A stretch of 64,000 nucleotides of DNA. It comes from Lachnospiraceae bacterium (lineage in GTDB: Bacteria; Bacillota; Clostridia; Lachnospirales; Lachnospiraceae). The position numbers were made by a program, and so were the translations under genes. Position 1 is the first letter of the stretch, and each line of letters opens with the position of its first letter. This document shows positions 20,009 through 38,598 of the stretch, in pieces. Location: assembly GCA_015057835.1 (NCBI GenBank), contig SVDL01000002.1, positions 26,103 through 90,102 of the forward strand, written 5' to 3'. The notes beneath the pieces were generated by a model, which was given only the letters and a program-made list of their open reading frames with translations, had not been told where the DNA came from and made no database searches.

Positions 20009-21559
20009 ATGTTTATTAAAGTTCTGCTTCTCGTAATCTTTTTCGGCGTTATGATCGGGATCGGTCTGTACTGCCGGAAAAATGCCACCGACGTCAACGG
20101 ATTTGTGCTCGGCGGCCGCTCGGTCGGCCCGTGGCTCACTGCCTTCGCTTACGGCACTTCCTATTTCTCGGCGGTCATTTTCGTGGGTTACGCGGGGCAG
20201 TTCGGCTGGAAATACGGCATCGCGGCGACGTGGGCAGGCCTCGGAAACGCGTTCCTCGGTTCTCTGCTTGCCTGGGCAGTTCTCGGACGCCGCACGCGTA
20301 TTATGACCCAGCACCTGAATTCCGCGACAATGCCGGATTTCTTTGCGAAGCGGTTTGACAGCAGACCGCTCAAGATTGCGGCGTCGATCGTCACATTCAT
20401 TTTCCTGATCCCGTACACGGCATCCCTGTACAACGGACTCTCCCGCCTGTTCGGCATGGCGTTCAATATCGATTATTCGATCTGCGTGGTCGTGATGGCA
20501 GTTCTGACCGGTATTTATGTTGTTACCGGCGGTTACATGGCGACGGCGATCAACGATTTTATCCAGGGCTGCATCATGCTCGTGGGTATCGTAGCGGTCA
20601 TCGTAGCTGTCATGAAAACACAGGGCGGCTTTATGGGAGCTTACCAGGGGATGGCGCAGGTCATGGACCCGACAGTCACGGAAGTGCCGGGCATGTTTGC
20701 CTCCTTCTTCGGACCGGATCCGGTCAACCTTCTCGGCGTTGTTCTCCTGACGTCCCTCGGCACCTGGGGACTTCCCCAGATGGTGCAGAAATTCTACGCG
20801 ATCAAGAGCGAGCGCTCCATCTACACAGGCACGGTAGTGTCGACGGCATTTGCGGTCATCGTGGCGGGCGGATGCTATTTCCTCGGCGGCTTCGGCAGAC
20901 TTTTCTGCACACCGGAGGAAGTGGCGGCGAACGGATTTGACTCCATCGTCCCCAAAATGCTTTCCGGCCTCCCGGATTTCCTGATCGCGGTCGTTGTGAT
21001 CCTGGTCCTGTCCGCGTCCATGTCGACACTCTCCTCGCTGGTCCTGACCTCGAGCTCGACGCTGACGCTCGACCTCATCAAGGGAACGATCGTCAAAGAA
21101 GAAGATATGGATGAGAAAAAGCAGGTCTCCATCATGCGGATCCTCGTCGTCGTGTTCATCGCGATCTCGGTCATCATCGCGATCATTCAGTACAAGTCCT
21201 CCGTGACCTTTATCGCACAGCTGATGGGTGTTTCATGGGGAGCGCTGGCAGGCGCGTTCCTGGCTCCGTTCCTGTACGGCCTGTACTGGAAGGGAACGAC
21301 GGCGGTCTCCTGCTGGGTCAGCTTCATTTTCTCGACGGTCGTCATGCTGGCAAATATGTTCGTCCGCAGCGCGTTCCCAGCGCTCCTGCAGTCGCCGATC
21401 AACGCCGGCGCGTTCTGTATGATCGCGGGACTGATCATCGTCCCGGTGGTATCCCTGTTCACGAAGAAACCGGACAAAAAGCTGGTGGAGGACGCGTTCG
21501 CGAGCTACACAAGGAAGGTCTACGTCGAACAGAGACGTGCACTGGAAGGCGATTCGTAA
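20009..21559 (+). CDS. Sodium:solute symporter family protein
   Basis: FVLGGRSVGPW, SYFSAVIFVGYAG, GGYMATAINDFIQG, GLPQMVQKFYA and SASMSTLSS motifs. Confidence 0.92.
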   Translation: MFIKVLLLVIFFGVMIGIGLYCRKNATDVNGFVLGGRSVGPWLTAFAYGTSYFSAVIFVGYAGQFGWKYGIAATWAGLGNAFLGSLLAWAVLGRRTRIMTQHLNSATMPDFFAKRFDSRPLKIAASIVTFIFLIPYTASLYNGLSRLFGMAFNIDYSICVVVMAVLTGIYVVTGGYMATAINDFIQGCIMLVGIVAVIVAVMKTQGGFMGAYQGMAQVMDPTVTEVPGMFASFFGPDPVNLLGVVLLTSLGTWGLPQMVQKFYAIKSERSIYTGTVVSTAFAVIVAGGCYFLGGFGRLFCTPEEVAANGFDSIVPKMLSGLPDFLIAVVVILVLSASMSTLSSLVLTSSSTLTLDLIKGTIVKEEDMDEKKQVSIMRILVVVFIAISVIIAIIQYKSSVTFIAQLMGVSWGALAGAFLAPFLYGLYWKGTTAVSCWVSFIFSTVVMLANMFVRSAFPALLQSPINAGAFCMIAGLIIVPVVSLFTKKPDKKLVEDAFASYTRKVYVEQRRALEGDS

Positions 21560-24314: not shown

Positions 24315-27300
24315 ATGCGGTTTACGCATCTGCATGTCCACACCGAGTATTCGCTCCTTGATGGATCCAATAAAATAAAAGAGTACATCGCCCGGGTCAA
24401 GGAACTCGGGATGACGAGCTGCGCGATCACGGATCACGGCGTCATGTACGGCTGCATCGATTTCTACAAAGCCGCCTGGGAGGAAGGTATCAAGCCGATC
24501 ATCGGGTGCGAGGTCTACGTCGCTCCGGGGAGCCGTTTCGAGAAGGGCGGCGCGGGCGGCCGCGGCAGTGCGGCAAATGCCGACGACAAGTATCACCATC
24601 TGATCCTGCTTGCCGAGAACAATCAGGGCTATGCGAACCTGATGAAGATCGTCTCCGCCGGCTTTGTGGAGGGGTATTATTACCGCCCGAGAGTCGATAA
24701 GGAGCTGCTGCGGAAATATCACGAGGGCATTATCGCGTCCTCCGCGTGTCTTGCGGGCGAGATCGCGAAGCTTCTCATGCGCGGCGAGTATGAGGAGGCC
24801 AAAAAGACGGCTCTCGAGTACAGGGATATTTTCGGGGAAAATAACTTCTTCCTGGAACTTATGGATCACGGCATTCCGGAGCAGAAGCGGGTCAATCAGC
24901 TTCTTAAGGAGATCAGCCGGGAGACCGGCATTCCGATGATCGTTACCAACGACGCGCATTATACATTTAAAGAGGACGCGGAGCCCCACGACATACTGCT
25001 TTGCATCCAGACGGGCAAAAAAGTGCAGGACGAGGACCGGATGCGCTACACCGGCGGCCAGTACTACATCAAATCCGCGGAGGAAATGGCCGCGCTCTTC
25101 CCGGACGTCCCCGAAGCGCTTGAAAATACCAGCCGCATCGCGGACCGCTGCAACGTGGAGATCGTCTTCCACGAGCGCAAACTTCCCAAATACGATCTTC
25201 CGCCCGGAAGGCGGCCGTTTGAATACCTGGAGAGCCTTTGCACCGAGGGGCTGAAAAACCGGTACGCCGTTGTCACGAGAGAGATCGAGGACCAGCTGCA
25301 TTATGAGCTGTCCACGATCCGCAGCATGGGGTTTGTCGACTATTTCCTCATTGTCTGGGATTTCATCAAATACGCCCGCGATCACGGCATCGCCGTCGGG
25401 CCCGGAAGAGGCTCCGCCGCGGGATCGATCGTGTCCTATTCGCTGGGAATCACACAGCTTGATCCGCTGCAGTATAACCTCCTGTTTGAGCGCTTCCTGA
25501 ACCCGGAGCGCGTGTCGATGCCCGATATCGACGTCGATTTCGACCCGGAGAGAAGACAGGAAGTCATCGAATATGTCATGAATAAATACGGCCGCGACAA
25601 ATGCGTTCAGATCGTCACGTTCGGAACGCTGAAAGCCCGGAACGTCATCCGCGACGTCGGCCGCGCCCTCGACATGTCCTACGGCGAAGTCGATGTGATC
25701 GCGAAAATGATCCCGATGGAGCTCGGCATCACCATCGACAAGGCGATGAAAATGAATCCGGAGCTCGCCGCCGCCTATAATGAGCAGGAAAATGTCAAAT
25801 ACCTGATCGACATGGCAAAACGTCTCGAGGGACTCCCCCGCCACACGTCCATGCACGCGGCGGGCGTCCTGATCTGCCAGAACCAGGTCGACGACTACGT
25901 TCCGCTCTCCGTCGCGGCGGACGGAACGATCACGACGCAGTACACGATGACGACCCTCGAGGAACTGGGCCTTCTGAAAATGGACTTCCTCGGCCTGCGG
26001 AACCTCACCGTCATTCAGAACGCGGAGAAGCTGGTCAACGCCAATATTCCGGAGGGATCCCCGAAACTGGATATCGACCGGATCGACCTCAGCGAGCCGA
26101 ACGTGCTGAACATGATCGGCAAAGGGGACACTGAGGGCGTCTTCCAGCTGGAGAGCGCCGGAATGACGAGTTTCATGAAGGAGCTCCGCCCGGAGCGGTT
26201 CGAAGATATTATCGCGGGGATCGCGCTGTATCGTCCGGGTCCGATGGATTTCATTCCGAAATATCTGGCCGGCAAGCGCAACGCGGCGTCCGTCACGTAC
26301 GACTGCCCGGAACTTATGCCGATCCTTGAGCCGACCTACGGCTGCATCGTCTACCAGGAACAGGTCATGCAGATCGTTCAGGAGCTGGGCGGCTATACGC
26401 TCGGGCGGGCGGATCTCGTCCGGCGCGCGATGTCCAAGAAAAAAGAATCCGTCATGATCAAGGAGCGGAAGAATTTCGTCTACGGAAATCCCTCCGAGGG
26501 CGTTCCGGGATGCCTGAGCCGCGGCATTTCCGAGGAAGTGGCCAATAAGATCTTCGACGAGATGATGGATTTCGCGAAGTACGCATTTAACAAATCCCAC
26601 GCCGCGGTCTACGCCTATGTCGCCATGCAGACCGGATATCTCAAATATTATCATCCGGTCGAGTACATGGCCGCCCTTATGACGAGCGTCATCGGAGCCC
26701 CGGCAAAGTGCGCGGAGTACATTCTGCACTGCCACGACATGAATATTTCCATTCTTCCTCCGTCGGTCAACGAGGGGGAAGGCGTGTTTACAGCGGAAAA
26801 CGGCAGTATCCGGTACGGCATGTACGCGGTCAAGCATGTCGGGCGACCGGCGGTGGACGCGATCGTGCGAGAGAGAAAGACGGGAGGACCGTTTACGTCT
26901 CTCAAGGATTTCCTGACCAGGGTGCAGGGCTCGGAACTGAACAAGAGGGCAATTGAAAACCTCATCAAGGCCGGCGCCCTGGACGGACTGGACGGCAACC
27001 GCAGGCAGTGCATGATGGCGTTCCCGCTTATGATGGAAGACGCCGCCCGGGAGAAAAAGGAATCAATTTCCGGGCAGATCAGTCTGTTCGATTTCATGCA
27101 GCCGGAGGATACGCCGCCCTCGAAGCAGCTGCTTCCCGACGTGCCGGAATTCCCGAAAGAGGAGAAGCTGGCGTTTGAAAAGGAAGTCATGGGCGTCTAT
27201 CTGTCCGGCCATCCGCTCGAGGAGGAGGAAAAGCTCTGGAGAAAGACGATCTCCGCCAAAGCGATGGATTTTGCGCCGGAAGAGACCTCCGAGGAAGAGC

Positions 27301-27821
27301 CGGCCGCCCAGAGCGGAGGCAGAAAGCGGCTCTGGAACGGAGAAAAAGAGATCATCGGCGGCATCATGACGGGCAAGACGATCAAGTACACGAAGAACAA
27401 CAAGGTCATGGCGTTCATCACCCTGGAGGATCTGACCGGCTCCGTGGAAGTGCTGGTCTTCCCGCAGACCTACGAAAAGTATGCGGGACTTATGACCCCG
27501 GACGCGAAGCTGTTCGCGGAAGGCAAAGTGTCCGTCGAGGACGAGAAGGCCAGCAAGCTCCTGGCGGACCGGCTGTGGTCCTTCGACGAGGTGCCGCGCG
27601 AGGTCTGGATCCAGTTCCCGGACAAGGCGTCCTATGACGCGCAGGAAACGGAAATGATGCGGATCATCGGCTCCGCTCCCGGGAAAAACCGGGTGTGCGT
27701 TTATCTCCGGGACCGGAAAGCGGTCAAGAAGCTTCCTCTTGAGGACGCCGTTTCGACGGATGCCGGGACGGTGGGGCGCCTCAGGGAGGTTTTTGGAGAA
27801 GCAAATGTGAAGATAGTGTAA
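24315..27821 (+). CDS. dnaE: DNA polymerase III alpha subunit
   Basis: HLHVHTEYSLLDG (PHP domain), GPGRGSAAGS, SMPDIDVDF, KMDFLGL, YAFNKSHA and C-terminal OB fold. Confidence 0.97.
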   Translation: MRFTHLHVHTEYSLLDGSNKIKEYIARVKELGMTSCAITDHGVMYGCIDFYKAAWEEGIKPIIGCEVYVAPGSRFEKGGAGGRGSAANADDKYHHLILLAENNQGYANLMKIVSAGFVEGYYYRPRVDKELLRKYHEGIIASSACLAGEIAKLLMRGEYEEAKKTALEYRDIFGENNFFLELMDHGIPEQKRVNQLLKEISRETGIPMIVTNDAHYTFKEDAEPHDILLCIQTGKKVQDEDRMRYTGGQYYIKSAEEMAALFPDVPEALENTSRIADRCNVEIVFHERKLPKYDLPPGRRPFEYLESLCTEGLKNRYAVVTREIEDQLHYELSTIRSMGFVDYFLIVWDFIKYARDHGIAVGPGRGSAAGSIVSYSLGITQLDPLQYNLLFERFLNPERVSMPDIDVDFDPERRQEVIEYVMNKYGRDKCVQIVTFGTLKARNVIRDVGRALDMSYGEVDVIAKMIPMELGITIDKAMKMNPELAAAYNEQENVKYLIDMAKRLEGLPRHTSMHAAGVLICQNQVDDYVPLSVAADGTITTQYTMTTLEELGLLKMDFLGLRNLTVIQNAEKLVNANIPEGSPKLDIDRIDLSEPNVLNMIGKGDTEGVFQLESAGMTSFMKELRPERFEDIIAGIALYRPGPMDFIPKYLAGKRNAASVTYDCPELMPILEPTYGCIVYQEQVMQIVQELGGYTLGRADLVRRAMSKKKESVMIKERKNFVYGNPSEGVPGCLSRGISEEVANKIFDEMMDFAKYAFNKSHAAVYAYVAMQTGYLKYYHPVEYMAALMTSVIGAPAKCAEYILHCHDMNISILPPSVNEGEGVFTAENGSIRYGMYAVKHVGRPAVDAIVRERKTGGPFTSLKDFLTRVQGSELNKRAIENLIKAGALDGLDGNRRQCMMAFPLMMEDAAREKKESISGQISLFDFMQPEDTPPSKQLLPDVPEFPKEEKLAFEKEVMGVYLSGHPLEEEEKLWRKTISAKAMDFAPEETSEEEPAAQSGGRKRLWNGEKEIIGGIMTGKTIKYTKNNKVMAFITLEDLTGSVEVLVFPQTYEKYAGLMTPDAKLFAEGKVSVEDEKASKLLADRLWSFDEVPREVWIQFPDKASYDAQETEMMRIIGSAPGKNRVCVYLRDRKAVKKLPLEDAVSTDAGTVGRLREVFGEANVKIV

Positions 27822-27825
27822 GGCA

Positions 27826-27856
27826 GGAGCCAGAGGGGACGGTTCTCTCTGGCTTC
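27826..27856 (+). repeat. REP-like hairpin just after the dnaE stop
   Basis: GGAGCCAGAGGGGA-CGGT-TCTCTCTGGCTTC. Confidence 0.75.
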
Positions 27857-27914
27857 TCGGTATTTTAGTCAATTTCGGGACGTAATATTTGGTAAAAAAG
27901 CCGAAAGTTATAAG

Positions 27915-27943
27915 TTGACAGCTTGTAATACAACTTGTATAAT
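27915..27943 (+). promoter_or_regulatory. Consensus sigma70 promoter with a palindromic operator in the spacer
   Basis: TTGACA-17 nt-TATAAT; the spacer contains TTGTA-A-TACAA (27923-27933), overlapping TACAA-C-TTGTA (27929-27939). Confidence 0.8.
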
Positions 27944-28043
27944 GGTAGCAGGATGAAAAAGAATCAAACGAACCCTTTAGAACAGAGGGTTTTCGGGCGA
28001 GACGAAGCAGCATTTTCAAGCGATCGATGATGGAGGAAGATGT

Positions 28044-28835
28044 ATGGAACTGGGACTGAAGGATAAGGTCGTTCTGATCACGGGCTCCGCGAAGGGAATC
28101 GGCAAAGAAATCGCGAAAGCATTTGCCGCGGAAGGCGCTGTCCTTGTACTGAATGACGTCCTTGCGGATGTGCTCGAAGAGACAGTAAAAGAGTTCAACG
28201 ACGCAGGCACAAAGACTTACGGATACGCATTTGACATCACCAATGAAGCAGCTGTTACGGAAGCAGTCGCGAAGATCGAGGCGGAAGTCGGACCGATCGG
28301 CGTACTCATCAACAACGCGGGTCTTCAGAGAAGATTCCCGCTGGAGGAGTTCCCGCTGGACGAGTTCAAACGGGTCATCGACGTCGACCTCATCGGATCG
28401 TTCATCGTCAGCAAAGCTGTCGCGAAATACATGATCCCGAGACATGCGGGACGCATCGTAAACATCACTTCCCTTAACGCGGAACTGGTCCGCAAGGACA
28501 TTTCCCCGTACTGCGCGGCGAAGGGAGCTCTCAAGCAGCTCACCAAGTCGATGGCGGAAGAGTGGGGCAAATACGGCATCAGCGCCAACGCGGTAGGCCC
28601 GGGCTACATCAAGACGGACATCAACAAAGCGCTCTGGTCAAAACCGGATTTCGACCAGTGGGTATGCGACGAGACCTGCCTCAAGGAATGGGGCAAAGTC
28701 GAGCACATCGCGAACGCGGTCGTCTATCTCGCATCCGACGCGGCGTACTACATCACCGGTCAGTCCATCTATGTGGACGGCGGCTGGCAGGCACACCTCG
28801 GCGGTGACCCGACAAAGGAAGCGCTGCAGGGCTGA
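28044..28835 (+). CDS. SDR oxidoreductase, gluconate 5-dehydrogenase-like
   Basis: TGSAKGIG, INNAGLQRRFPL, YCAAK and NAVGPGYIKT motifs. Confidence 0.85.
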   Translation: MELGLKDKVVLITGSAKGIGKEIAKAFAAEGAVLVLNDVLADVLEETVKEFNDAGTKTYGYAFDITNEAAVTEAVAKIEAEVGPIGVLINNAGLQRRFPLEEFPLDEFKRVIDVDLIGSFIVSKAVAKYMIPRHAGRIVNITSLNAELVRKDISPYCAAKGALKQLTKSMAEEWGKYGISANAVGPGYIKTDINKALWSKPDFDQWVCDETCLKEWGKVEHIANAVVYLASDAAYYITGQSIYVDGGWQAHLGGDPTKEALQG

Positions 28836-28910
28836 TTACGGAAATCGTTGAAAATGTAAAATGAGGCGGAGAGCACCGTCTGCACACAATAAAAAAGAGG
28901 AGAATTTATC

Positions 28911-29951
28911 ATGGCAGAACACGCATATCTCAAATGGTTTGCAACTCAGACACCGGCTAAATACTGGCACGATTCCGCAATCCGCGCGGAGCAGCTCGAA
29001 GCGTTCGGAAACGGCGCTGTCGGCATGACCACCAACCCGTTCCTGATCCAGGCAACTCTGAACAGCGACCGCGCTTTCTGGGCAGAGAAGCTTGAGAAGT
29101 TCCCGAAAGACCTCAAGGGCGATGAAAAGGCTATGGAACTCATCCGCCTGGTCACCGGATATTATCTTGAAGAAGCTAAGCCGATCTTTGAAAAAGGCGT
29201 CGAGGGCGAAGGCTACATCTGCGCACAGACCAGCCCGCTGCACTGCGGCGATGATGAATTCATGATTGACCAGGTCAAATATTACGGCACATGGGCTCCG
29301 AACCTTACCATCAAAGTTCCGGCGACCAAGGCCGGCATCACCGCTTACGAAGAAGGCGTAGCGATGGGCTTCAACATGGCTGCTACCGTCAGCTTCACCG
29401 TTCCGCAGGTCATCGCTGTTGCGGAAGCTGCAGAGCGCGGCAAAAAGAGAGCCGAAGCTGCAGGCATTAAGCCGGGTCTCACCTGCGCCGTTATCATGGC
29501 AGGCCGCCTTGACGACTATCTCCGCGACGTCGCGCACGACAGCAAAGCGAACGTCTCCGAGAGCGACATCACCCAGGCCGGTATTGCCGTCATGAAGAAA
29601 TCCTACAAGATCTTCAACGAGAAGGGCTACAGCACATGGATCCTGCCGGCAGGCCTCCGCGGCGCAAACCAGGTCTATGAGATGGCCGGCGCGAAGATGA
29701 TCTTCTCGATCGCTCCGAAGATCGCCAAACTCGTTGATCCGAATGCTCCGCAGGAAGAGCGCGTGAACATCCCGGTAGAGCAGGATGTCATCGACCGTCT
29801 TCTCACCATGCCGGAATTCCGCAAAGCTTTCCTCACCGAGGAAGAGGGCGGCATGAAGCAGGAAGAGTTCATGACCTTCGGTTCCACGAACCGCACGATC
29901 GACCAGTTCATCAACGACGGCTGGAACAACCTGACGGGCTTCAAGTTCTGA
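28911..29951 (+). CDS. Transaldolase-family protein (divergent)
   Basis: WHDSA, TTNP, IKVPAT (Schiff-base Lys) and AGRLDD motifs. Confidence 0.85.
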   Translation: MAEHAYLKWFATQTPAKYWHDSAIRAEQLEAFGNGAVGMTTNPFLIQATLNSDRAFWAEKLEKFPKDLKGDEKAMELIRLVTGYYLEEAKPIFEKGVEGEGYICAQTSPLHCGDDEFMIDQVKYYGTWAPNLTIKVPATKAGITAYEEGVAMGFNMAATVSFTVPQVIAVAEAAERGKKRAEAAGIKPGLTCAVIMAGRLDDYLRDVAHDSKANVSESDITQAGIAVMKKSYKIFNEKGYSTWILPAGLRGANQVYEMAGAKMIFSIAPKIAKLVDPNAPQEERVNIPVEQDVIDRLLTMPEFRKAFLTEEEGGMKQEEFMTFGSTNRTIDQFINDGWNNLTGFKF

Positions 29952-29992
29952 TAGAACTTCCTGACAGAATAAAGCTGAATAAAACCAATAAT

Positions 29993-30024
29993 AAGAACCG
30001 CTCCGGATTTCCGGAGCGGTTCTT
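29993..30024. terminator. Bidirectional intrinsic terminator
   Basis: AAGAACCGCTCCGG-ATTT-CCGGAGCGGTTCTT, perfect 14-bp stem. Confidence 0.85.
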
Positions 30025-30050
30025 TCGCATTTGTTTGTTGTTTTTAATTA

Positions 30051-31178
30051 TTACAGATCCAGCACGAGATCATACACCTCAGGGTTCAGCACTTTGATCG
30101 TGTCCATGTATTCGCCCATGAGCTCAAGGTTCTGGTCATATTCCAGCGGATAATGTTTGAGAAGGTTGAAGTACGCCCACGCCGAGTTGGAATCGGGATA
30201 GACGGTGGCCTTCAGGAAGTATTCCTTCGCGAGAGCGGAGTTAATATACAGTTTGCAGTACACTTTCCCGGCGGAGCAGCGGATCTCGCCGGTCTTGTAA
30301 AACAGCCCGAGCCGGTTGGCCGCGTACGGTTCATACTTATCCGCCGCGATGGTGAGATAATGGATATAGTTTTCGATCCGTCCGGAGAGTTCGGAAGCTC
30401 CGGCGCCCGGGGCCTGTGCCTCTTTGCCAAGGTTCTCGATCTTCCCGGCGCCCGTGTCCTCCGCCTCTCTGCTCAGCCGCACGATCTCTTCCGCCTCCGC
30501 GACAGCGAGATTGTTGCAGGCATAGACGTACCCCGCCTGTGCCGCTGCCCGGAAGTATTCCTTTGAGAGCGCGGCGCAGTCCTTACAGCTTTCGCATTTT
30601 CCGGTCGTCAGTTCCAGGGTGGAAAATGTCCGCGCGGCAGCATTTTCCCGAACGAGAGACTCGAGCTCCCGGTACAGTTCTTCGTTTCCGGCGATCTCGG
30701 CGAGAATGCGTCCGACCAGATTAACGGCCTCCGACGCGCCGGTATAATCGATGCAGGAGATCGCAAGCTCAAGCGCGGTCCCGAACCGCCCGGAAAGCGT
30801 CATTCCGTCGATCAGCGGGATCTCTTCACAGGTGCGCAGGAATGAATCCCGGTGATAATTCACAAGGTAGTAGCCGACGGACCAGAAAGAGAGCGGAAAT
30901 GCGGCCGCCCCGCACTCCCAGGAGCCGTCCTCCCGGATCGCAATGGCCGCGGCTTTCATGTAGAGATCGAACGCGTCGCGGTACGGATCCCTGCGGAGGA
31001 TCTTTTTATAGAAAATAAGATCGCCGAAAAGCTTGGAGGCGACGGTATTTCCGGCGTCGGACATGCACAGGACTTCGCGCTCCGCGCTCGGAGAAAAAAC
31101 GCCTACCCGCGCGACGATCTGTTCGCTGTAATCCTTCAGGAAAGTGAGATAGCTGCTGTCACATTGAAAGCGGTTCAT
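30051..31178 (-). CDS. Hypothetical helical protein with Sel1-like repeats
   Basis: AAQAGYVYACNNLA, YAANRLGLFYKTG and SAWAYFNL segments. Confidence 0.6.
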   Translation of the reverse strand: MNRFQCDSSYLTFLKDYSEQIVARVGVFSPSAEREVLCMSDAGNTVASKLFGDLIFYKKILRRDPYRDAFDLYMKAAAIAIREDGSWECGAAAFPLSFWSVGYYLVNYHRDSFLRTCEEIPLIDGMTLSGRFGTALELAISCIDYTGASEAVNLVGRILAEIAGNEELYRELESLVRENAAARTFSTLELTTGKCESCKDCAALSKEYFRAAAQAGYVYACNNLAVAEAEEIVRLSREAEDTGAGKIENLGKEAQAPGAGASELSGRIENYIHYLTIAADKYEPYAANRLGLFYKTGEIRCSAGKVYCKLYINSALAKEYFLKATVYPDSNSAWAYFNLLKHYPLEYDQNLELMGEYMDTIKVLNPEVYDLVLDL

Positions 31179-35853: not shown

Positions 35854-36109
35854 ATTTTATTATTACCTGCAGACCCTTCTGATATTACTAAGGATACATC
35901 AGCAACACCTTATCACAAACTGTTATAGTGCGCAATGCACAGTTTGCCGGGCGGTATTTTATCAGGGGAAAATGCATTCGCCGGCCGGCAGTTCCATGAG
36001 AAACCCGGCATTGCAGGCCCCGGCAAAAAGGAAAATGTGTTAAAGATTGATTTCCATCCGAAAAAACCATATATTTAGATATATCAGAAAACAGAAGGAG
36101 AGACAGATT

Positions 36110-37219
36110 ATGGAGACCAGACCTTATGTTTCATGGGAACTCATGAATTCGTTCCTGATCGACGCTTTTAAGGCGTACGGCGTTCCGGAAGACGACGCGG
36201 CGATCTGTGCCGACGTGCTTCTTCAGTCCGACCGCTTCGGCATCGAGAGCCACGGCTGCAACCGCTTTAAGCCGATCTATATCGACAGGATCGTAAAAGG
36301 AACACTGAAACCCGTCACGGAGATCGAGATCGTCAAGGATACCCCGACCACCGTGGTCATCGACGCCCATGACGGCATGGGCATGGTCGCCAGCCATAAG
36401 ATGATGGAGATGCTGATCGAAAAGGCCGGAAAATACGGCATGGCCGGCGGCGCCATCCGGAATTCGACTCACTACGGCATTGCCGGATACTGGCCGCTCA
36501 TGGCGGTGAAGAAGGGCATGATCGGCATTACCGGGACGAACGCGAGACCGTCCATCGCGCCGACATTCGGCGTCGAAAATATGCTGGGCACGAATCCGCT
36601 GACATTTTCCATGCCGACGGATGAGGAATTTCCGTTCTTCCTCGACTGCGCGACGTCCATCGTGCAGCGCGGCAAGATCGAATACTACGCGCGCATAGGC
36701 AAAGACACGCCGGCGGGCATGGTCGTCTCAAGAAGCGGCGAAACGGTCACGGATTCCAATCAGATCCTGAAGGATCTCGTGGACGGAAATGCAGCCCTCG
36801 CGCCCCTTGGCGGAGGTCCGGGCGATGAGATGTGCGGATATAAGGGATACGGCTACGCGACCGTGGTGGAGATTCTTTCCGCGGCTCTCGCGGGAGGCCC
36901 GTTCATGAAAGCGCTGACCGGCGTCGATGAGAACGGCAATCCGCAGATGTATCATCTCGGACATTTCTTCTTTGTCATTAATCCGGAATTCTTCATGGGT
37001 CTCGATACCTTTAAGAAGATCGCAGGCGATATCTGCCGCGCGCTGCGCGCTTCCGCAAAGGCGCCGGGGTATGACCGGATCTATACGGCAGGCGAAAAAG
37101 AATTTATCATCTGGCAGGAGCGCCGGGAGAAGGGCGTCCCGGTCGGGGAAGCGGTCCAGAAGGAGATCCTGAAGGTCCGCGACGAGAAGAAGCTGCCGTA
37201 CACATTCCCGTTTGAATAA
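36110..37219 (+). CDS. Ldh_2-family oxidoreductase (type-2 malate/L-lactate dehydrogenase fold)
   Basis: SHG, DAHDGMG, NSTHYGIAGYW, GTNP, LDCATS and YKGYG motifs; start after RBS AAGGAG. Confidence 0.88.
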   Translation: METRPYVSWELMNSFLIDAFKAYGVPEDDAAICADVLLQSDRFGIESHGCNRFKPIYIDRIVKGTLKPVTEIEIVKDTPTTVVIDAHDGMGMVASHKMMEMLIEKAGKYGMAGGAIRNSTHYGIAGYWPLMAVKKGMIGITGTNARPSIAPTFGVENMLGTNPLTFSMPTDEEFPFFLDCATSIVQRGKIEYYARIGKDTPAGMVVSRSGETVTDSNQILKDLVDGNAALAPLGGGPGDEMCGYKGYGYATVVEILSAALAGGPFMKALTGVDENGNPQMYHLGHFFFVINPEFFMGLDTFKKIAGDICRALRASAKAPGYDRIYTAGEKEFIIWQERREKGVPVGEAVQKEILKVRDEKKLPYTFPFE

Positions 37220-37288
37220 AATCCTGTAAAGACGAAGCCGGCGGGTACGGTTGAATAAAATCCTGTAAAAATGAAGCCGGCGGGCATG
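37211..37288. repeat. 39-bp tandem duplication including the stop codon
   Basis: TTGAATAAAATCCTGTAAA(GAC/AAT)GAAGCCGGCGGG occurs twice, 39 bp apart. Confidence 0.85.
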
Positions 37289-37309
37289 GCTCCGGTGCGG
37301 GATCTGTCC

Positions 37310-37378
37310 GCGGGATGACAAAAATCTGCGGGATGACAAAATCTGCGGGATGACAAAATTTGCGGAATGACAAAAAAC
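37310..37378. repeat. Four tandem copies of a 17-18 bp unit
   Basis: GCGG(G/A)ATGACAAAA.. at 37310, 37328, 37345 and 37362. Confidence 0.9.
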
Positions 37379-37425
37379 GGATTGAACAACAATTGCTATA
37401 TAGAAACAAAAGGAGAAGCACTACC

Positions 37426-38588
<1,163 letters not shown>

Positions 38589-38598
<10 letters not shown>

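Follow-up and report, generated by a model that had tools for sequence, protein, structure and literature searches.

Here, we identify a transaldolase-like (TAL-like) enzyme in a Lachnospiraceae bacterium that is neither a canonical transaldolase nor a fructose-6-P aldolase (FSA) by sequence criteria, and that is encoded together with an SDR in a separate operon. We lean, by a narrow margin, toward a model whereby the two proteins act as a self-contained unit within a dispersed sugar-acid pathway that needs no sugar kinase, and in which the SDR would make a 5-keto-hexonate and the TAL-like enzyme would split it to tartronate semialdehyde and a dihydroxyacetone unit. We show here the fold of the enzyme, which residues are kept and which are changed, how the operon is built, that the gene neighbourhoods are conserved and that the gene is rare; the pathway steps are inferred, neither the substrate nor transfer as opposed to lyase activity is shown, and there are no biochemical data.

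Results

The window, i.e., the whole stretch of DNA analysed, comprises 64,000 nt, and within it the SDR and TAL-like genes stand alone between dnaE and an unknown gene, with no other pathway genes alongside (Table 1). As judged from sequence alone, the pair makes up an operon of its own, which has a perfect sigma-70 promoter and terminators on both sides. A terminator-like hairpin ends the upstream dnaE gene, called from its translation and from the Pfam domains of the homologous gene in the related locus L012, and parts it from the operon. The promoter, ~100 nt upstream of the SDR start, matches the consensus at 12 of 12 positions and is the sole such site within 27700-30200; an Rfam scan of the 5' leader of the operon found no RNA element. 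Downstream, a two-way terminator hairpin sits between the TAL-like gene and a converging ORF.

Table 1. Positions of the operon, its flanks and four active-site codons within the window.
Feature	Position	Strand	Details
dnaE	24315..27821		upstream gene
Terminator-like hairpin	27825..27857	+	15-pair stem, then T-rich tail
Sigma-70-type promoter	27915..27943	+	TTGACA, 17 nt, TATAAT
SDR gene	28044..28835	+	263 aa
TAL-like gene	28911..29951	+	346 aa
Asp21 codon	28971..28973	+	TalB D17 equivalent
Gln106 codon	29226..29228	+	replaces catalytic Glu (TalB E96)
Lys135 codon	29313..29315	+	Schiff-base Lys, TalB K132 equivalent
Met196 codon	29496..29498	+	replaces Phe/Tyr (TalB F178)
Two-way terminator hairpin	29993..30024	.	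14 pairs, 9 G-C
Converging ORF	30051..31178	-	

The SDR has both the catalytic Ser-Tyr-Lys residues (Ser143 and Tyr156-x3-Lys160) and the glycine-rich cofactor motif (TGSAKGIG at residue 13), together with NNAG at residue 90. Its top NCBIfam matches are gluconate 5-dehydrogenase models, but they fall under the equivalog cut-offs (276 bits versus 369 for NF005488 and 260 versus 408 for NF005983). Among PDB entries, seven top matches at 213 to 235 bits include gluconate 5-/hexonate dehydrogenase entries, and the remaining SDRs follow in a next tier at ~170 bits or less. The SDR is a member of the gluconate/hexonate 5-dehydrogenase group, an inference that rests on sequence alone; its initial description as gluconate-5-dehydrogenase-like held by these best matches, though the curated cut-offs were not reached. 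By the same kind of inference, and without biochemical support, the SDR could convert a hexonate to a 5-keto-hexonate by oxidizing its penultimate carbinol. Orthologues with 50 to 86% identity adjoin or lie near a TAL-like gene in L012, L015, L046, L062, L080-L083 and L091. Most relatives pair the TAL-like enzyme with other SDR subfamilies (~35% identity) and, therefore, the oxidized substrate may differ between loci. A different substrate for the TAL-like enzyme, 2,5-diketo-3-deoxygluconate, which is the product of DhuD/KduD-like SDRs similar to the window SDR, was rejected on chemistry because it is without the hydroxyl needed for the retro-aldol cut.

The TAL-like protein is a TIM barrel of the transaldolase/FSA superfamily. 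It matches Pfam PF00923 (E 1e-30, 107 bits versus a cut-off of 27), and with its predicted AF2 model (pLDDT 90.5) all top 50 Foldseek matches are transaldolases, with a TM of ~0.75 to the enzymes of N. gonorrhoeae (PDB 3clm) and C. glutamicum (PDB 3r5e). Residues were mapped with MAFFT, using E. coli TalB and FsaA from NC_000913; with hhalign, comparing TalB with a profile built from 12 family members (probability 97%); and with phmmer against solved type-2 transaldolases, in which 'yicaQtsp' lies opposite 'fvslEvsp'. The TalB residues D17, N35, K132, T156, R181 and R228 are kept as D21, N42, K135, T159, R199 and R250, while E96, N154, S176, F178 and S226 are changed to Q106, A157, V194, M196 and G248, respectively. 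For D17, MAFFT alone places H20 at this position, and the W-x-D motif of type-2 transaldolases places D21. The resulting Gln106/Met196 pattern is that of neither transaldolase (Glu/Phe) nor FSA (Gln/Tyr).

Several claims of an earlier, sequence-only reading of this DNA can be judged from these data. It had placed both genes, and the two ORFs lie exactly there. It had also listed the same six residues as kept and the same five as substituted and had concluded that the enzyme fits neither known type; all of this held, with the three alignment methods in agreement. A proper alignment restoring E96 and F178 had been named as what would refute it, and neither residue was restored by the alignments that were run. 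Its claim that the phosphate site is altered held only in part, because Ser226 alone is lost and both arginines are retained. Arg199 and Arg250 are a putative anion site, and it is possible that the site formed with Gly248 accommodates phosphate, carboxylate or both; these assignments are predictions from residue identities.

Profile scores also set the protein apart. It lies under all eight NCBIfam TAL/FSA cut-offs (best score 69 bits versus 367), and the FSA model TIGR00875 gives 30 bits versus a cut-off of 246. The Gln of FSA is present, but the Tyr131 position is Met196 and the length is 346 rather than ~220 aa. The protein is thus neither a canonical transaldolase nor an FSA by sequence criteria; there are no assay data on fructose-6-P/sedoheptulose-7-P transfer. 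With neither Glu nor Tyr, its acid-base catalyst is unidentified, and this counts against the proposed mechanism. His20, which does not vary within the TAL1 and TAL2 clades, was considered as a new catalytic base and rejected as a general solution because Asn, Cys, Ile or other residues take its position in the wider Gln/Met superfamily.

The active-site signature is fixed in ~60 orthologues from three phyla, and Gln/Met is found in nearly all of 68 distant representatives; therefore, these are not chance substitutions. The Gln/Met branch is a large, unannotated superfamily within the transaldolase fold, the genes of which are currently called 'transaldolase family protein' or 'hypothetical'; clustering at 50% identity gives at least 96 groups for E<1e-30 and 495 for E<1e-10. 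The TAL-like gene is rare in the bacterial family to which its host belongs, with a homologue at E<=1e-60 in just 1 of 120 other genera sampled. Thus, it is not a housekeeping gene, as expected of an accessory catabolic trait. No published account of the enzyme was found in the open-access literature searched, a scope that leaves out most subscription journals.

To place the pair in context, we used 62 non-redundant related loci from Bacillota, Spirochaetes and Planctomycetes. An SDR gene is present in 48 of them and adjoins the TAL-like gene in 29. A beta-hydroxyacid dehydrogenase of the tartronate semialdehyde reductase type is encoded in 42 loci, in 24 of them directly adjoining. Two of these reductases were scored individually, and both exceed the curated cut-offs of a pair of equivalog models for 2-hydroxy-3-oxopropionate reductase (481 versus 397 bits and 430 versus 341 bits). 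All 44 scanned reductases match NF008592 at E<=1e-115 and 41 match TIGR01505 at the same level, which lies over the TIGR01505 cut-off by our own conversion. Glycerate kinases of two unrelated folds (PF02595 and DUF4147/MOFRL) are found in 10 loci. The sequence-only reading had named a nearby tartronate semialdehyde reductase or glycerate kinase as a check on its proposal, and this check was passed. In L015, where the SDR is 58% identical to the window SDR, the order is GntR, SDR, TAL-like gene, reductase, a metallo-beta-lactamase-fold protein and glycerate kinase.

Other neighbours recur as well. An IolO-like ketose 3-epimerase, best matched by the 5-keto-L-gluconate epimerase IolO (TM0416), directly adjoins the TAL-like gene in 17 of the 62 loci; a split transketolase is present in 27, and a second paralogue, TAL2, in 15. 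The Zn-ADH of relatives matches the IolM and IdnD models below the curated cut-offs. The regulators are of the GntR/FCD type. TRAP/TTT uptake systems are encoded in 18 loci, and ABC systems also serve transport in relatives, in some loci with Peripla_BP_4 or Peripla_BP_6 components that are not diagnostic of acids. The best sequence matches of the TRAP binding protein are the EFI structures 4p1l, 4ovq, 4pf8 and 4mhf, at just 25 to 30% identity; as putative hexuronate complexes, these structures are an unverified lead on the TRAP substrate. No recurrent sugar kinase, and no dihydroxyacetone kinase gene, was found among the recurrent neighbours in the 62 loci. Sphaerochaeta halotolerans 4-11 (L068) and Sphaerochaeta sp. 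S2 (L064) are cultured carriers of the cluster.

In the genome that contains the window, a 182-contig draft, reductase, kinase, transketolase and transporter genes lie on other contigs. One of these (C166) carries Zn-ADH, TK, TK, GntR, SDR and reductase genes, this reductase having 89% identity to the L033 enzyme, and another (C178) carries glycerate kinase. The sole other short transaldolase-family member in the genome (on C151) is of the Gln/Tyr FSA type, and no canonical Glu/Phe transaldolase was found there. The link of the pair to the remaining pathway thus rests on orthology, with relatives 79 to 90% identical, and on genes elsewhere in the draft.

Discussion

In the model that we favor, a six-carbon sugar acid would be imported by TRAP, TTT or ABC systems in relatives and by transporters encoded elsewhere in the genome of this bacterium. 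The SDR would oxidize C5 of the hexonate, e.g., D-gluconate or L-idonate to 5-keto-D-gluconate or, alternatively, D-mannonate or L-gulonate to D-fructuronate. The head of the product, HOCH2-CO-CHOH-CHOH-, would be the same donor motif as in fructose-6-P, and in relatives the IolO-like epimerase would fix the carbon beside the keto group in a transaldolase-compatible configuration. Lys135 would then form a Schiff base with the C5 keto group, the C3-C4 bond would be broken, and tartronate semialdehyde would leave, its carboxylate occupying the position of the fructose-6-P phosphate at Arg199 and Arg250. The enzyme-bound dihydroxyacetone unit would most likely be transferred to glyceraldehyde-3-P, giving fructose-6-P. 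We favor transfer because Met196 is no proton donor like Tyr131 of FSA, and because kinases for dihydroxyacetone or other sugars are not recurrent members of the clusters. Tartronate semialdehyde reductase would yield D-glycerate, which glycerate kinase would pass to glycolysis. We speculate that the loss of Glu96 fits an anionic substrate whose own carboxylate would lie near the hydroxyl to be deprotonated (substrate-assisted catalysis).

The cleavage of a 5-keto-hexonate to tartronate semialdehyde and a dihydroxyacetone unit was already inferred in the sequence-only reading, and the neighbourhoods support it. Further support comes from the adjoining IolO-like epimerase, the carboxylate-type TRAP/TTT uptake and the GntR/FCD regulators; all of this is genomic context, none of it is biochemical, and the exact hexonate remains undetermined. 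The split transketolase, which that reading did not foresee, and TAL2 have no explained role in the scheme, and this counts against it.

We considered four other explanations. That the protein is an ordinary, merely sequence-divergent fructose-6-P/sedoheptulose-7-P transaldolase of the pentose phosphate pathway would agree with its PF00923 fold, with the kept Lys, Asp, Asn, Thr and both arginines, and with a genome in which no canonical Glu/Phe enzyme was detected and the C151 member is of the Gln/Tyr type; moreover, an enzyme making fructose-6-P must also take it as a donor. However, the catalytic Glu is substituted in every member, scores lie far under all curated transaldolase cut-offs, only 1 of 120 other family genera has a homologue, as is not the case for a housekeeping gene, and the gene is consistently set among sugar-acid genes with dedicated transporters and regulators. 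We regard this explanation as very unlikely. Alternatively, the enzyme could be a transaldolase whose donor is a ketose with neither charge nor phosphate. In this case, the SDR/Zn-ADH and the ketose 3-epimerase would turn a polyol into fructose, L-sorbose or a rare ketohexose, from which the enzyme would yield fructose-6-P and glyceraldehyde, the latter to be reduced by the linked reductase. The polyol-type dehydrogenases (SDR and Zn-ADH), the action of other relatives of the epimerase on neutral ketoses and the ribose-type Peripla_BP_4 ABC systems of some loci speak for it. It is nevertheless unlikely: in 41 to 44 loci the linked reductase matches tartronate semialdehyde reductase at equivalog level, glycerate kinases of two folds and GntR/FCD regulators are present, TRAP and TTT systems, which are typical carboxylate carriers, occur in 18 loci, both anion-binding arginines are kept, and the epimerase has its closest match in IolO, which acts on keto-gluconate.

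A shorter keto acid is likewise an improbable substrate, whether a 4-keto-pentonate split to glyoxylate and a dihydroxyacetone unit or a 3-oxo-tetronate, a beta-keto acid, decarboxylated by the Schiff-base lysine to the dihydroxyacetone enamine. Decarboxylation would make the Glu unnecessary, and loss of the base for the C4 hydroxyl is expected in a decarboxylase; a beta-hydroxyacid dehydrogenase with a hydroxypyruvate-isomerase-like TIM barrel is also a signature of threonate/erythronate catabolism, with weak matches to the NCBIfam L-threonate dehydrogenase and 2-oxo-tetronate isomerase models; and SDRs producing 3-oxo acids from C4-C6 sugar acids exist (PMC12994016). Against it, the reductase scores 481 bits for tartronate semialdehyde reductase versus 200 for L-threonate dehydrogenase, the TIM barrel scores 180 bits for IolO versus 42 for 2-oxo-tetronate isomerase, the window SDR groups with hexonate 5-dehydrogenases, and neither variant gives tartronate semialdehyde or accounts for the glycerate kinases. 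Finally, the enzyme could act on the same substrate as a lyase like FSA, freeing dihydroxyacetone without transfer to an aldose phosphate. The enzyme is like FSA (Gln59, Leu107 and Ala129) in its Gln at Glu96 and in having small hydrophobic side chains at positions 154 and 176. The Tyr at the Phe178 position of FSA is its proton donor; this FsaA Tyr ("APY") is Met in the TAL-like enzyme. Dihydroxyacetone kinase genes are also missing from the recurrent neighbours, and in 27 loci the cluster comes with the split transketolase, which would fit a flow into sugar phosphates. Thus, we consider a lyase unlikely.

The TAL-like enzyme shares with classical transaldolases (TalB and the type-2 enzymes 3clm and 3r5e) the TIM barrel, at a TM of ~0.75, a Schiff-base Lys on the same strand and the equivalents of Asp17, Asn35, Thr156, Arg181 and Arg228, and at ~350 aa it is as long as type 2. 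By contrast, identity is 17 to 20%, Gln, Met, Ala, Val and Gly stand at E96, F178, N154, S176 and S226, scores lie under curated cut-offs, and the gene is an accessory one that shares operons with sugar-acid genes and is seldom found in its own family. FsaA has Gln at Glu96 and hydrophobic residues at 154 and 176 in common with it, but differs at Tyr131 (Met) and in length (220 versus 346 aa), and hhalign covers just 71 residues around the Lys.

The proposed pathway logic is that of 6-deoxy-6-sulfofructose transaldolase (SftT/BmSF-TAL; PDB 8bc3 and 8c4i, both among the phmmer and Foldseek matches of the TAL-like protein): an anionic, non-phosphorylated ketose would give a C3 unit to glyceraldehyde-3-P, and an anionic C3 aldehyde would be reduced by a beta-hydroxyacid dehydrogenase without a sugar kinase. 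This enzyme, which the sequence-only reading had cited, holds as a precedent: its donor is anionic and carries no phosphate, and its fold is the same (PMC7491151). A transketolase and a transaldolase can also share one cluster, as in the bifurcated sulfo-TK/TAL pathway (PMC11659671). Sulfofructose transaldolase differs in being short (~220 aa) and in matching the TAL-like protein only over residues 17-97 (26 bits for 8bc3). Sulfoglycolysis itself was rejected: the linked reductase is of the tartronate semialdehyde and not the sulfolactaldehyde type (481 versus 221 bits), and no sulfoquinovose isomerase or sulfoquinovosidase genes were found in the 62 related loci.

In the E. coli garL-garR-garK route, C-C cleavage also gives tartronate semialdehyde, followed by the reductase and glycerate kinase, and L015, L049 and L053 have this order with the TAL-like gene in the place of garL. 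GarL, an aldolase that requires a metal and has a different fold, cleaves 5-keto-4-deoxy-glucarate and releases pyruvate, while the proposed co-product of the TAL-like enzyme is a dihydroxyacetone unit. The window SDR groups with Gno/IdnO gluconate 5-dehydrogenase, and the Zn-ADH and epimerase of relatives match L-idonate 5-dehydrogenase IdnD and the Thermotoga maritima IolM and IolO proteins, all of which make or interconvert 5-keto-hexonates. All of these matches are under curated cut-offs, and in the known ketogluconate/idonate and inositol routes the keto-hexonate is first reduced or dehydrated, with phosphorylation to follow; Schiff-base cleavage of the keto-hexonate is part of none of them.

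A bolder reading, to which we give slightly less than even odds, is that the substrates of the whole Gln/Met branch are keto sugars with a carboxylate and no phosphate, and that catalysis in this branch needs neither of the two known acid-base residues. The window enzyme would be the first member examined and, with the SDR, would provide a kinase-free route from hexonate to 5-keto-hexonate and, with glyceraldehyde-3-P, to fructose-6-P and tartronate semialdehyde, the latter going on to glycerate. Possibly, the split transketolase makes an analogous cut on 4-keto-pentonates, likewise giving tartronate semialdehyde; this would account for the mirror-like cluster order in Sphaerochaeta (SDR-TK / reductase / TAL-SDR).

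Among the substrates commonly met in the gut or derived from plants are hexonates and hexuronates, including gluconate, idonate, glucuronate, galacturonate and the breakdown products of ascorbate. To our knowledge, no textbook bacterial route for them avoids dehydration or phosphorylation. Within the open-access literature searched, the enzyme has never been characterized, and the proposed kinase-free splitting of six-carbon sugar acids would be undescribed. If the model is true, the transaldolase fold works without its canonical Glu or Tyr, genes now carrying uninformative names could be better annotated, and a large enzyme branch would be opened to study and biocatalysis, e.g., stereoselective C-C bond formation with acid aldehydes. 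For the bacteria that carry it, the Schiff-base cut of a free keto-hexonate, with half of the molecule passing straight to glycolysis, would be a new entry into central metabolism and the carboxylate counterpart of sulfoglycolysis by transaldolase.

Results

The TAL-like protein matches Pfam TAL_FSA (E 1e-30). Against the eight NCBIfam models for transaldolase and fructose-6-P aldolase, it scores far under every curated cut-off (69 bits versus 367 for the best). Its AlphaFold2 model (pLDDT 90.5) is closest to the transaldolases of N. gonorrhoeae and C. glutamicum (TM about 0.75, 17-20% identity). Residues were mapped by alignment of E. coli talB/fsaA with family members, by hhalign of the family profile against TalB (probability 97%), and by phmmer alignments to solved type-2 transaldolases. 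D21, N42, K135, T159, R199, and R250 are retained (TalB D17, N35, K132, T156, R181, and R228); Q106, A157, V194, M196, and G248 replace TalB E96, N154, S176, F178, and S226. The three approaches concur, and the kept and changed residues called by eye in the sequence-only reading held alike, as did its coordinates for both ORFs. The acid-base residue is a Glu in transaldolase and a Tyr in fructose-6-P aldolase; the present family has neither.

These active-site changes are not noise but characterise the family. About 1,720 homologues are present in a 90% clustered collection, most of them unnamed or annotated "transaldolase family protein." Across 80-odd copies taken from related loci, H20-D21-N42-Y102-C104-Q106-K135-A157-T159-V194-M196-R199-G248-R250 hardly varies. 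When 1.84 billion representatives were searched exhaustively with HMMER, at least 96 superfamily clusters (50% identity) were obtained at E<1e-30 and 495 at E<1e-10. Nearly all of 68 full-length representatives, the most distant at about 28% identity, have Gln where TalB has Glu96 and Met where it has Phe178, whereas His20 is not conserved to this extent. These two residues therefore mark out a distinct and large branch of the transaldolase fold, termed "Gln/Met" here. Gln/Met proteins typically have 330-360 aa (representatives P0125-P0273), and the collections searched give a name to none of them. In longer forms, of 495 and 655 aa, only the C-terminal part matches; the 655-aa P0174 has the Gln/Met pattern.

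The SDR and TAL-like genes are co-directional and, because they have their own promoter and hairpins on either side, form a separate bicistronic operon (see table). An Rfam scan found no element in the leader, and the converging 375-aa ORF has no Pfam or NCBIfam match. The catalytic set of the SDR (Ser143/Tyr156/Lys160) is intact. Its top NCBIfam models are gluconate 5-dehydrogenase, below cut-off. Among solved structures, its top seven matches (213-235 bits), which include the gluconate 5-/hexonate dehydrogenase entries, score well above other SDRs. Thus, the earlier label of gluconate-5-dehydrogenase-like held for the group, though under curated cut-offs.

Features in the window and on other contigs (C) of the same genome, with the same positions in locus numbering (L)
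Feature	Location	Strand	Description
Sodium:solute symporter	20009-21556		No visible link to operon
dnaE	24315-27821	+	Upstream of the SDR/TAL-like pair
Hairpin	27825-27857	+	Closes dnaE; upstream of promoter
Promoter	27915-27943	+	Perfect TTGACA-17-TATAAT, ahead of SDR
SDR	28044-28835	+	263 aa
TAL-like	28911-29951	+	346 aa
Strong two-way hairpin	29993-30024		Downstream of TAL-like
ORF	30051-31178	-	375 aa; next gene, converging on operon
Ldh_2-family gene (malate/L-lactate dehydrogenase type 2), then malic enzyme gene	36047-38595	+	No visible operon link
TAL2	C19:9172-10230 = L010:1384-2442	-	43% identical to TAL-like
SDR	L010:2510-3256	-	Flanks TAL2
Zn-ADH	L010:230-1276	-	Flanks TAL2
Short PF00923 protein	C151:8517-9161 = L009:1480-2154	-	224 aa; Gln/Tyr, fructose-6-P-aldolase type
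ZnADH-TKn-TKc-GntR-GntR-SDR-reductase	C166:20598-28152		GntR/FCD regulators; plus a small 158-aa ORF
TK-TK-TIM barrel-2-hydroxyacid dehydrogenase-ABC	C6
Peripla_BP_6 ABC system	C147
Glycerate kinase	C178

Contexts were gathered by exact-protein look-ups and a scan of species-representative genomes; neighbouring ORFs were clustered and cluster representatives annotated. The 62 non-redundant loci are spread over Clostridia (Lachnospiraceae, Oscillospiraceae, and others), spirochaetes (Sphaerochaeta and Treponema), and Planctomycetes. The sequence-only reading had proposed looking nearby for a tartronate semialdehyde reductase or glycerate kinase. Both were found: a beta-hydroxyacid dehydrogenase of this reductase type in 42 loci (adjacent in 24) and a glycerate kinase in 10. 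An SDR, from one of several subfamilies, is present in 48 (adjacent in 29), a split transketolase (halves TKn and TKc) in 27, a TRAP or TTT transporter in 18, an AP_endonuc_2 TIM barrel adjoining the TAL-like enzyme in 17, and both TAL paralogues in 15. In the unfiltered locus set, about 27 loci have a Zn-ADH and about 29 have GntR/FCD regulators. Neither a sugar kinase nor a dihydroxyacetone kinase recurs among the neighbours. Three architectures are repeated: TKn-TKc-GntR-reductase-ZnADH-ABC-epimerase-TAL-SDR, sometimes followed by a 2-hydroxyacid dehydrogenase and glycerate kinase; SDR-epimerase-TAL-TAL2-reductase-TRAP-LacI; and, in Sphaerochaeta, GntR-TctCBA-SDR-TKn-TKc-reductase-TAL-SDR. 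The mirror-like order SDR-TKn-TKc, reductase, TAL-SDR lies behind TctCBA or TRAP in Sphaerochaeta and other spirochaetes (L064, L068, L070, L071, L074, L076, and L079). The clearest single sugar-acid cluster around a TAL-like gene is locus L015 (GntR, SDR, TAL-like, reductase, metallo-beta-lactamase-fold protein, glycerate kinase), whose SDR is 58% identical to that of the window. A 6-phosphogluconate-dehydrogenase-like gene (NAD_binding_2 + 6PGD) lies inside four clusters (L013, L036, L080, and L088), in two of them (L036 and L088) directly 3' of the TAL-SDR pair, which hints at a link to gluconate metabolism.

Against both 2-hydroxy-3-oxopropionate (tartronate semialdehyde) reductase equivalogs, the reductase scores above the curated cut-off (481 versus 397 and 430 versus 341 bits); its scores for sulfolactaldehyde reductase, L-threonate dehydrogenase, and 3-hydroxyisobutyrate dehydrogenase are much lower. 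All 44 neighbour reductases tested match NF008592 at E<=1e-115, and 41 match TIGR01505 at the same threshold, above cut-off by our conversion. Glycerate kinases are of two unrelated folds, PF02595 (L015, L049, and L053) and DUF4147/MOFRL (seven cluster members). By best matches, the adjacent TIM barrel is a ketose 3-epimerase, closest to Thermotoga TM0416/IolO, a 5-keto-L-gluconate epimerase. The Zn-ADH matches IolM, threonine dehydrogenase, and L-idonate 5-dehydrogenase models, all below cut-off. Transport systems are DctPQM, TctABC, or ABC, and the TRAP binding protein has 25-30% identity to binders of sialic acid and sugar acids, which it resembles.

The 91%-complete draft genome (2.66 Mb, 182 contigs) has three PF00923 genes, encoding the TAL-like protein, TAL2, and a protein with the motifs "HVQV," "APYINR," and "ASFKN" (Gln, Tyr, Lys), its only short member; the draft yielded no transaldolase of the canonical Glu/Phe kind. 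TAL2 has a fixed signature of Leu104, Cys157, and Gln196 versus Cys, Ala, and Met in the TAL-like enzyme. Because TAL2 directly follows the TAL-like enzyme in 15 related loci, the two likely act in one pathway. The remaining pathway modules are present but dispersed over contigs. By analogy, the C166 cluster, whose reductase shares 89% identity with the L033 reductase, would be the rest of the pathway that adjoins the TAL-like enzyme in relatives, here apart from it. The nearest full-cluster relatives of the TAL-like protein (L032 and L033) are 79% identical; a 90% identical relative (L012) shares the dnaE-SDR-TAL order.

Discussion

The sequence-only reading had proposed that the SDR makes a 5-keto-hexonate, which the TAL-like enzyme cleaves to tartronate semialdehyde plus a dihydroxyacetone unit. 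We judge such a route the simplest chemistry using all recurring parts and lean toward it, although there are no biochemical data and both the substrate and transfer rather than lyase activity are inferred. In this view, a dehydrogenase would oxidise the penultimate carbon of a hexonate; a ketose 3-epimerase, where needed, would give the adjacent centre the D-threo configuration that the transaldolase fold requires; and the Schiff-base TAL-like enzyme would cut C3-C4. The acid half would leave as tartronate semialdehyde, to be reduced to glycerate and phosphorylated. From stereochemistry, which we derived rather than computed, direct substrates would be D-fructuronate (5-keto-D-mannonate, also 5-keto-L-gulonate) and 5-keto-D-gluconate (also 5-keto-L-idonate); the 5-keto-D-galactonate or psicuronate type would first need the epimerase. 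With Glu96 lost, the substrate carboxylate might itself accept the proton from the hydroxyl two carbons away, an attractive but untested idea. The split transketolase may cut 4-keto-pentonates, also giving tartronate semialdehyde. This would explain the mirror order, and two kinase-free cleavage routes might then converge on one reductase. Alternatively, the split transketolase could use hydroxypyruvate.

Gene rarity, the sugar-acid context, and the missing Glu make it very unlikely that the TAL-like protein is an ordinary transaldolase. A transaldolase for a neutral ketose is also improbable given the equivalog-level reductase, glycerate kinases, carboxylate transporters, and IolO-like epimerase. 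Shorter keto-acids, cleaved to glyoxylate or decarboxylated, would give no tartronate semialdehyde and find little support in the low scores of the corresponding NCBIfam models, so we consider them unlikely substrates. A real open alternative is that the enzyme is a lyase, freeing dihydroxyacetone. We consider it more likely that the C3 unit is passed to glyceraldehyde-3-P, because Met196 cannot serve as a proton donor, a role reported for the Tyr of fructose-6-P aldolase, because no dihydroxyacetone kinase recurs, and because the logic then mirrors that of sulfofructose transaldolase (PMC7491151).

Of 120 other genera sampled in the same family, a single one has a homologue at E<=1e-60, which marks the TAL-like gene as an accessory trait; horizontal spread is suggested by its occurrence in three phyla. 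We found no report, in the full-text literature searched, of a transaldolase-fold enzyme with keto-hexonates or uronates as substrates. Among published systems, that sulfofructose transaldolase and the bifurcated sulfo-TK/TAL pathway (PMC11659671) come closest. A recent study of sugar-acid SDRs (PMC12994016) involves kinases and decarboxylases, unlike the kinase-free route proposed here. Altogether, the fold and covalent chemistry are known; what is new is the set of catalytic residues, probably the class of substrate and, if the proposed route is correct, the pathway.
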